Shown: positions 55,300-56,087 of the stretch, piece after piece
Layout: each line of letters opens with the position of its first letter
Position numbering within the stretch: position 1 is the stretch's first letter
Source: Perna viridis
Taxonomy: Eukaryota
Assembly: GCA_037379345.1 (NCBI GenBank)
Contig: CM074513.1
Coordinates: 32,360,885-32,424,884 of the forward strand
DNA: 64,000 nucleotides
Direction of reading: 5' to 3'
Program-made: the position numbers and the translations under genes
Notes under the pieces: model-generated
The model's input: only the letters and a program-made list of their open reading frames with translations
What the model was told of the DNA's origin: nothing
The model's database searches: none

Positions 55300-56087
55300 A
55301 GATCTTGCCGAAACTACGCAGACTTTTTAGTATCGCGCTAGAACTGTAACAAATAGGCTTCTGGAACAGGGTAATGTTGTTACAAGATTGAAGTCATCAC
55401 TACAGAAGTTTTATGGTCGTCATCATGAACTCGTGGATCGTTATGGTGTATCCATCTGCATCATGAAAACTGATTTATTCGACGGTTCATAGTTTTCCTT
55501 TCCTCGTTTGTCTACACTAGACTTGACTTTTTATGAGCAACTGGGCGGGTGTTTCTAGAAAAGCAGAGGATGCTTACCCTACCGGTACACCTGGTCCATG
55601 CTCCCAGTTTGTAGTGGAGTCCGAGTTGCTCATTTGCTTTTGTTACTTTGTATGTATGATTTTAGTTACTTTATGTTCTTTGTTGTGTATGTCTGTTTTC
55701 CATGTCTGGTCTTTGTCCCTGGACTACTTTCTTTTAATTACAGGTTTAACCTTGGTTCCCTTGATTACTCTTTGATTACCGCTATAACATTGGTTCCCTT
55801 GATTACTCTTAGTATTGTCGTATGACCATGACTGGATTACATTCTTTTGATTACCGCTATAACCTTGGTTCCCTTGATTACTCTTAGTATTGTCGTATGG
55901 CCATTACTGGATTACATTCTTTTGATTACCGCTATAACCTTGGTTCTCTTGATTACTCTTTGATTACGGCTATAACCTTGGTTCCCTTGATTACTCTTTG
56001 ATTACCGCTATAACCTTTGTTCCCTTGATTACTCCTCGATTACCGCTATAACCTTGGTTCCCTTAGTATTGTCGTATGGCCATGACT
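55300..56087 (+). mobile_element. 5'-truncated Naiad-type 3' fragment with reiterated terminal repeats
   Basis: RSCRNYADF...RLLEQG.VVTRLKSSLQKFYGRHHELVDRYGVSIC, then 3' UTR, then an array of ttgattaccgctataaccttggttcccttgattactct. Confidence 0.85.

Follow-up and report, generated by a model that had tools for sequence, protein, structure and literature searches.

A pseudoknotted RNA motif with two palindromes in the 3' UTR of Naiad Penelope-like elements: a candidate dimer-activated ribozyme

The stretch of 64,000 nucleotides of Perna viridis DNA analysed here (contig CM074513.1; hereafter the window) carries five copies of an RNA motif of about 100 nt in the 3' UTR of Naiad Penelope-like elements (PLEs). 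The motif is almost certainly a real, conserved RNA structure, and we lean towards regarding it as a self-cleaving ribozyme, activated by dimerisation and of a class not yet described, which would fill the role of the hammerhead. On a wider proposal we are evenly divided: that one slot of the Naiad 3' UTR may be filled, family by family, by the present motif, by a palindrome-bearing twister or by a permuted hammerhead, all of them firing only when two element ends meet. The present motif would then be a new ribozyme class and an obligate dimer with strands exchanged between copies, extending from hydrozoans to bivalves and hemichordates and reaching tens of thousands of copies in the genome. 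What is new is the RNA structural class, the proposed role being of a known kind. Papers are cited by PMC number.

The host element and its copies in the window

The features of the window that concern this work are:

55297..55773, plus strand: 5'-truncated Naiad copy with an RT C-terminal remnant and the 3' UTR, element 3' end near 55773 (repeat comparison)
55343..55492, plus strand: RT tail, last 49 codons and stop (matches the C-terminus of our RT alignment A1)
55533..55633, plus strand: motif copy, the reference for the coordinates of the parts
55774..56087, plus strand: tandem repeats of 3'-terminal 'tail' segments of the Naiad copy (repeat comparison)
53435..53535, plus strand: motif copy in the decayed Naiad fragment 53201-53672
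53726..53825, plus strand: motif copy in the tandem partner fragment 53676-53963
9631..9733, minus strand: motif copy in fragment 9491-9779
36935..37017, minus strand: 5'-truncated motif copy in fragment 36799-37017

The five positions given by the initial annotation were all correct, and a covariance model, whose training set included the 55533 copy, recovered exactly these five in the 64-kb window (each with E 1.3e-11 or better; next-best match E 0.74). The strand had to be amended for 36935-37017, which lies on the minus strand like 9631-9733. The copies are 84-90% identical across the surrounding 220-380 bases. The location just past the RT stop in a Naiad 3' UTR was also borne out, the 55533 motif starting 40 nt after the stop of the RT remnant, at 55492.

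Naiads are defined by an N-terminal GIY-YIG domain with a cysteine finger, by CxC and DKA motifs, and by a C-terminal RT (PMC8557442). The window copies are truncated, and these protein features were read in long copies from the same genome. The Pfam GIY-YIG domain lies upstream of the RT in L379 (25.8 bits, cut-off 22.6); the CX2-5CxxC cysteine finger is present in L379 and L381, with Cys at the finger positions of both; and DCSCK (the CxC linker) and DKA occur in L376, L379, L381 and L383. The RT is C-terminal in the long copies, with the stop directly after the RT thumb, and its RVT_1 score is 21.7 bits, below the Pfam cut-off of 29.6. By all protein features tested, the host element is a Naiad PLE. 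Partial tandems (pLTR), inverted 5' pieces and a tail of 30-40 nt are all present in this family as well, and the tail repeats show an equal back-jump of 35-38 nt in public contigs. The 3' end of the family falls at one place in 49 of 69 alignments, and the motif sits 137 nt upstream of it. The RT end of the family gave 51,471 first-look candidates, and a 19-base word of the 3' UTR gave 19,789 exact matches (reversed control, 0). The long copy L375, a complete element, has two full 3' UTRs 4157 bases apart.

Layout and covariation of the motif

From 5' to 3', the motif consists of a P1 arm, a core strand, palindrome 1, a linker ending in CAG, a P3 strand, GCUYAC, palindrome 2, CACCYG, the P3 partner, P4 and the second P1 arm, and its helices adjoin one another without spacers. 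The parts of the 55533 copy, all on the plus strand, are given below with the counts from the motif alignment:

55533..55545, plus strand: P1 5' arm (outer stem), partner 55621-55633; 6/6 proximal pairs with two-sided changes, 90.8% of cells paired
55546..55551, plus strand: near-invariant core strand, partner 55588-55593 (model A) or, via its last four bases, 55575-55578 (model B); no two-sided change in either
55552..55561, plus strand: palindrome 1, 10 nt, predicted intermolecular helix; 99/100 cells paired, 5/5 pairs covary, six self-complementary centres
55562..55566, plus strand: conserved linker ending in C-A-G; C in 19/20, A in 20/20, G in 18/20
55567..55571, plus strand: P3 5' strand, long-range helix; 98/100 cells paired, 5/5 pairs covary
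55572..55577, plus strand: conserved core strand GCUYAC; 20/20 at five of six positions, the rows having been chosen by this word with at most one mismatch
55580..55587, plus strand: palindrome 2, 6-8 nt, predicted intermolecular helix; 93.7% paired, with little variation in the motif alignment
55588..55593, plus strand: conserved core strand CACCYG, a word by which the rows were chosen
55594..55599, plus strand: P3 3' strand, with one bulged base in the window family (alignment, covariation)
55600..55620, plus strand: P4 hairpin, variable in length and sequence; two-sided changes in 4/5 pairs
55621..55633, plus strand: P1 3' arm (covariation with the 5' arm)

Because copies of one family tell little about structure, we gathered relatives by their RT protein and not by the motif, taking the best 80 of 173 metagenome loci together with 16 genome-assembly loci. 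In many of these relatives the core words lie 36-250 nt past the RT stop. The motif alignment (A2) has 20 hand-chosen loci, one to three per family, from about 16 families. For two decayed families (L099 and L161) an intact-looking copy was chosen; the L161 locus has no RT, and the RT of L116 is badly decayed.

In this alignment 95.8% of 619 cells are paired and 21 of 31 pairs show two-sided changes, a covariation that none of 500 shuffles reached and from which slides likewise stayed far below. Four elements covary strongly: the outer stem P1, the P4 side hairpin, the 5-bp helix P3 and palindrome 1. Full pairing of a P3 strand is seen in 13 of 15 distinct combinations when the partner is its own and in 17 of 210 when the partner is foreign, and RNAalifold recovers P1, P3, P4 and the outer pairs of the palindromes unprompted. 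Since shuffle controls ignore relatedness, changes were also counted on an RT tree of 16 rows, two of which used the motif of a family mate; on this tree P3 requires 22 changes of pair type and palindrome 1 requires 23. Without choosing rows, palindrome 1 is paired 5/5 in 28 of 36 distinct matches and P3 4/4 in 28 of 36, while in 122 matches to these core words that arose by chance, palindrome 1 was never perfect and a perfect 4-bp P3 occurred twice. A search of viral contigs for an RT relative found none; at least 120 stretches there that fit the pattern behaved as chance and served as controls. The view that the motif is a conserved structured RNA is thus upheld by covariation across divergent families.

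Another aspect to mention is a short word upstream of P1, at 55510-55527 of the window, which recurs in most bivalve-type families (L061-L084) and occurs two or three times in L065, L080 and L082. It is a possible candidate for a protein site.

Pairing between copies

All 40 cells keep the central two pairs of palindrome 1, and six different centres occur among them. In a loop-less palindrome these two pairs cannot form within one strand. As hairpins, palindromes 1 and 2 of the 55533 copy have predicted energies of +4.1 and 0.0 kcal/mol, and as intermolecular duplexes of -9.0 and -10.9 kcal/mol; overall the hairpins range from -1.2 to +4.1 and the duplexes from -8.6 to -18.1 kcal/mol. The segments 55552-55561 and 55580-55587, previously described as hairpins, are therefore better seen as loop-less palindromes, unstable as hairpins and stable as duplexes. 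Very probably they would pair between two copies of the motif, as the energy model predicts.

G-U pairs occupy 59 cells of 16 pairs and A-C combinations 3 cells of 3 pairs. As G-U far exceeds A-C, the constraint falls on the sense strand as a single-stranded nucleic acid, and the alignment indicates that the motif acts as sense-strand RNA.

Core pairing and folding

Two pairings compete for the core strand. In model A, 55546-55551 pairs with CACCYG (6 bp, -7.0 kcal/mol); in model B, four bases of the core strand pair with YACY (-1.9 kcal/mol). Two-sided changes were sought for both in the 20 loci, and none was found. Energy favours model A, and two columns that alternate between C and U opposite G favour model B, as does, we infer, classical pseudoknot geometry. 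The two models may be two states. P3 crosses both core pairings, so the fold is a pseudoknot in either case. A small stem of the initial annotation, 55562-55564 with 55572-55574, is paired in 17/18, 15/20 and 19/20 rows without two-sided change and may belong to model B.

Of the multi-branch monomer fold proposed in the initial annotation, the outer stem and the side hairpin stand, since both covary. The inner hairpins turned out to be the palindromes; the 5-bp helix 55567-55571 with 55594-55599, which covaries in 5/5 pairs, was missing from that fold; and the inner stem CGGGUG:CACCUG is invariant and has the competing pairing. Measured against shuffles, the four whole copies folded in the sense direction with z of -2.2 to -2.6, two antisense folds had -1.9, and the truncated copy had 0.26. 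Single-copy folds thus only modestly beat shuffles, and it is the comparison across families, not the energy, that supports the structure.

Comparison with known RNA classes

It was expected from the initial annotation that the motif would be neither a hammerhead nor a SECIS element, and might be uncatalogued. All three points held. Rfam gave no relevant match at 53200-56200 of the window (to E 10) or in the 20 motif-bearing loci (to E 1); this includes pistol, hatchet, hairpin, VS, glmS, telomerase RNA and other families, and permuted forms would escape such models. The motif fits no hammerhead in any permutation, SGC, CSG and GCS included, with its boxes beside stems I-III: the box CUGANGA occurs in 1 of the 20 loci, in an insertion that is not shared, and GAAA in 7, with at most three in one column; the base after CUG covaries within P3. 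Neither a hammerhead core nor a twister loop word was found on either strand of the complete element L375. The SECIS signature (AUGA/GA quartet, apical AA) had neither an Rfam match nor a pattern in the motif-bearing UTR, with a scan able to detect it, as the positive result in L144 shows. A SECIS would also call for an in-frame UGA in the ORF, and the finger positions of L379 and L381 are Cys. None of the known catalytic cores is reproduced in full by the invariant bases. A likeness to telomerase CR4/5 was considered and rejected, there being no Rfam match and no covariation in the supposed short hairpin.

The HDV-like layout has a J4/2 strand with a catalytic C and a free base 5' of G1. The motif resembles it in a contiguous strand through three helices, in a G-U close to where the first core helix begins and in a possible 3-bp stem whose 7-nt loop donates a pseudoknot strand. 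It differs in that there is no J4/2 strand with a catalytic C, the base 5' of the G-U is paired, P4 adjoins P1 with covarying pairs on both, and Rfam gives no HDV-like match.

HRIMA-9 (PMC10085705), found beside ribozymes, shares three short words in the same order, and its 5' word pairs with the YACC word as in model B. In contrast, its published fold is rod-like, has no pseudoknot and no palindromes at these places, and is known from metatranscriptome RNAs only. The word match that led to it is at chance level; the comparison covered, out of 26 HRIMA alignments, those of supplement part 17 and a four-word string search.

Close in design are the dimeric minimal type I hammerheads of other PLEs, which are likewise ribozyme-sized, lie in the pLTR or 3' UTR with two per tandem unit, and have palindromic loops, unstable in the monomer, that are predicted to pair between copies (PMC4209133, PMC6765202). 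The motif differs in having no shared CUGANGA or GAAA, two palindromes instead of one, and a pseudoknot. With the twister of type P5 (RF02684) of other Naiad 3' UTRs it shares the region, the palindromes (there in the P1 slot) and a double-pseudoknot compactness. It lacks the twister UAA cut word, the 10-nt L4 loop and the T1 and T2 pseudoknots.

Ribozymes in relatives without the motif

Thirty-five RT rows covering the families comprise 19 with the motif and 16 without. Among the latter, Rfam twister-P5 scored above the gathering score in L117 and L119 and below it in L123, and L131 and L075 had weak twister best matches only (E 1.6 and 1.9). A twister descriptor, written after viewing the sequences, matched nine of the 16 motif-less UTRs and none of the 19 with the motif; it also matched 63 of 1750 shuffles. 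Of those 19, nine span only 137-311 nt, which makes the absence of a twister from them weak evidence. In each of the nine twister-like motifs a palindrome of 8-10 nt takes the place of a hairpin in the P1 slot, and five have a second one of 8-10 nt:

L117:3593-3651, L119:2011-2069, L123:3466-3524: twister type P5, Naiad-type 3' UTRs, palindromes in the P1 slot
near L075:3282, L126:2899, L131:2481, L143:1683, L152:990, L154:838: twister-like, Naiad-type 3' UTRs, palindromes in the P1 slot

These palindrome-bearing Naiad twisters are likely dimeric twisters. By eye, seven published Naiad records have a similar twister layout, with an atypical cut word in two of them. No twister was found in 7 of the 16 motif-less rows. 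One further locus, L110 (2091-2185), has hammerhead boxes in the order site-GAAA-CUGANGA, long stems and a palindrome upstream, which fits a non-circularly permuted hammerhead.

In a first RT tree, three twister rows fell inside a starred clade of motif-bearing RTs. However, the AU test did not reject motif-bearing RTs as one clade (p 0.55; L105, L110, L116 and L119 dropped), and for this reason neither the nesting of the twister group nor a replacement of the motif by twisters is upheld.

Two other 3' UTR arrangements were observed among the relatives. L074 (about 1610-1900), L078 (about 3270-3310) and L094 (about 690-730), loci with neither the present motif nor a twister, have a further short conserved motif, with three to four repeats in L074 and no Rfam match. 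L144-L151 are tandem arrays with units of about 3.7-3.8 kb, a Naiad-like RT and a SECIS element (42.8 bits) on a contig filed under a bacterial MAG; they are likely host DNA with a selenoprotein Naiad. In addition, L141, L142, L143 and L152-L156 are animal retroelement DNA within bacterial genome assemblies, probably by contamination.

Distribution among Naiads

The published consensus file of PMC8557442 shows, by eye, the full layout at 11 of the 15 occurrences of the first core word in its Naiad part, and in one further record this word is split by a line end. By eye and by string search, at least 12 of 54 Naiad records thus carry the motif. Both palindromes are self-complementary in 12/12, palindrome 2 having seven centres, and P3 is paired 5/5 in ten records and 4/5 in two. 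Two of the 12 are from Clytia (one by its header, one by file order), and another, directly before the Naiad-1_Pfla header, is from a hemichordate by file order. Naiad-1_Chem, marked 'HHR_core' in PMC8557442, also carries the motif. In the supplement of that paper, a second conserved and apparently pseudoknotted motif lies near the stop in all three Clytia records (Naiad-1, -2 and -3_Chem), and Naiad-3_Chem, which lacks the present motif, seems on inspection by eye to have hammerhead boxes in permuted order.

The P. viridis genome holds a second Naiad family, older and decayed (L157-L164), which has the same motif with different palindrome 1 and P3 sequences; an RT remnant lies upstream in matching orientation in 1 of these 8 loci. 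In the part of the literature open to search, no paper describing the motif came up, and neither the motif nor the twisters were described in the passages and string searches of PMC8557442.

Function

Naiads are reported to be without canonical hammerheads (PMC8557442), and the hammerheads of other PLEs, which have palindromic loops, are believed to cleave as dimers when transcripts run through tandem copies (PMC4209133, PMC6765202). In the mechanism we propose, which follows the logic described there for palindrome-capped, dimer-dependent hammerheads, partial tandems of a Naiad would yield a read-through transcript in which two motifs lie an element's length apart. The palindromes, which make unstable hairpins, would pair one copy with the other; the dimer would complete a compact pseudoknotted core made of P3 and one of the two core pairings, in which the invariant core bases could form the active site; and a cut in each copy would set free an RNA of unit length, which could then form a circle. 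A motif with this dimer design, placed in the same region of families that show no other recognisable ribozyme, is most simply read as a third solution to the same task.

Some observations speak against cleavage. The core pairing shows no two-sided change; HRIMA-9 did not cleave in vitro (PMC10085705); Naiad-1_Chem carries the motif and the 'HHR_core' mark together; and 7 of 16 motif-less rows show no twister, with the replacement not upheld by the AU test. A set of 115 3'-anchored genomic copies, taken without duplicates from the 100 matches listed first on one chromosome and from 40 kb of another, divides into 72 that keep the motif whole, 29 that start inside it and 14 that start after it. 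That longer fragments keep the motif, as observed earlier, is plain 5' truncation, with no weight as an argument. No spike of 5' ends appears within the motif, where 29 of 101 fall, with at most four in any 5 nt; the two 100-nt bins upstream hold 18/72 and 20/54. It should be noted that in a hammerhead-bearing PLE no read ends at the cut site either, and insertion in vitro proceeds without need for cleavage (PMC11167929), so the smooth 5' ends are weak evidence against a ribozyme. Four public contigs, when mapped, showed no peaks of begins or ends, and their depth gradient is unusable as evidence because they are contigs. Of the three functions first suggested (ribozyme, 3'-processing or RT recognition), the evidence leans towards the ribozyme and away from RT recognition, without settling the matter.

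The alternative we take most seriously, though it is rather unlikely, is a non-catalytic dimerisation and protein-binding element that joins RNA ends or RNAs and is bound by the Naiad RT/EN for template choice or for tandem or inverted insertion. Palindrome-driven dimers are predicted in either case, an invariant short helix with a pseudoknot suits a protein site, and the 115 copies listed carry no cleavage footprint in their 5' ends. Telomerase RNA is pseudoknotted as well. PLE RTs are sisters of the telomerase RT (PMC8557442), and a dimeric model of a PLE protein has been reported (PMC11167929). On the other hand, RTs 58-63% identical to that of this family (L074, L075, L078, L094) transpose or have transposed without the motif, and its presence in at least 12 of the 54 published consensus sequences does not make it a universal RT handle. 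The distance of the motif from the element 3' end also tells against such a handle, as does the one PLE tested, in which the RNA required for insertion lies near the RT start sites and not in the ribozyme (PMC11167929).

That the motif is a rearranged known class, most plausibly twister-sister-like, seems improbable to us. Here GCUYA would be the cleavage strand, cut between Y and A (55575/55576), and C-A-G the facing strand. These strands resemble loop L1 of twister-sister and the TS-like (lantern) forms (PMC5660989, PMC11620745): the six conserved loop bases G59, C60, U61, A63, A8 and G9 have conserved counterparts in order, U may stand for C at the cut in those ribozymes, ribozymes with non-circular permutations are known (PMC10085705), and minimal TS-like forms manage without SL4. 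However, there is no Rfam twister-sister match, the SL4 loop word occurs in 0 of 20 loci, and the counterpart of G5, which with C6 is invariant in twister-sister, is a G in no more than 15 of the 20 loci, and this once one base is deleted, whereas G5A nearly abolishes twister-sister activity (PMC5660989). The flanking helices are wired otherwise and do not fit; judging from the geometry of the pseudoknot, a single base would need to reach across the 5-bp P3 on the wrong side, and PMC6154101 describes twister-sister as incapable of pseudoknot formation. The match was also found after comparison with about ten classes.

An mRNA translation or stability element, which would protect the 3' end, retain the RNA in the nucleus or control translation and would dimerise only incidentally, is very improbable. 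The 3' UTR position agrees with it and other Naiads carry SECIS, a translation element, in this region (L144; PMC8557442), but it leaves the two covarying palindromes and the same design in twister-bearing relatives unexplained, and the motif-bearing UTR has no SECIS pattern.

A function of the DNA itself, as palindromic protein sites in the pLTR promoter or as an endonuclease target, can hardly be credited: pLTRs contain promoters (PMC6765202), yet the palindromes vary freely in sequence while staying self-complementary, G-U is allowed but A-C is not (59 against 3), a difference to which double-stranded DNA would be blind, and P3 covaries at a distance. What speaks for it is the palindromic form, and palindromes are typical sites of dimeric DNA-binding proteins.

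If the ribozyme proposal is true, the motif would be a rare new self-cleaving class from animal genomes; to our knowledge, only about a dozen small self-cleaving ribozyme classes are known. It would also answer why Naiads, the most abundant PLE clade, seem to be without ribozymes, a question left open in PMC8557442, and dimer-gated cleavage in PLE transposition would become testable with a 100-nt transcript. Even without cleavage, the motif is a strongly covarying RNA fold, not described before, whose design for dimerisation has two palindromes.

Other features of the window

Beyond the tail repeats by 650 bases, a 482-codon open frame (56733-58181, plus strand) with a signal-peptide-like start and N/G-rich repeats probably encodes a secreted host protein. 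Other repeat families, tandem and inverted, 72-85% alike and unrelated to Naiad, lie at 330-1226, 29480-30764 and 47370-49765.
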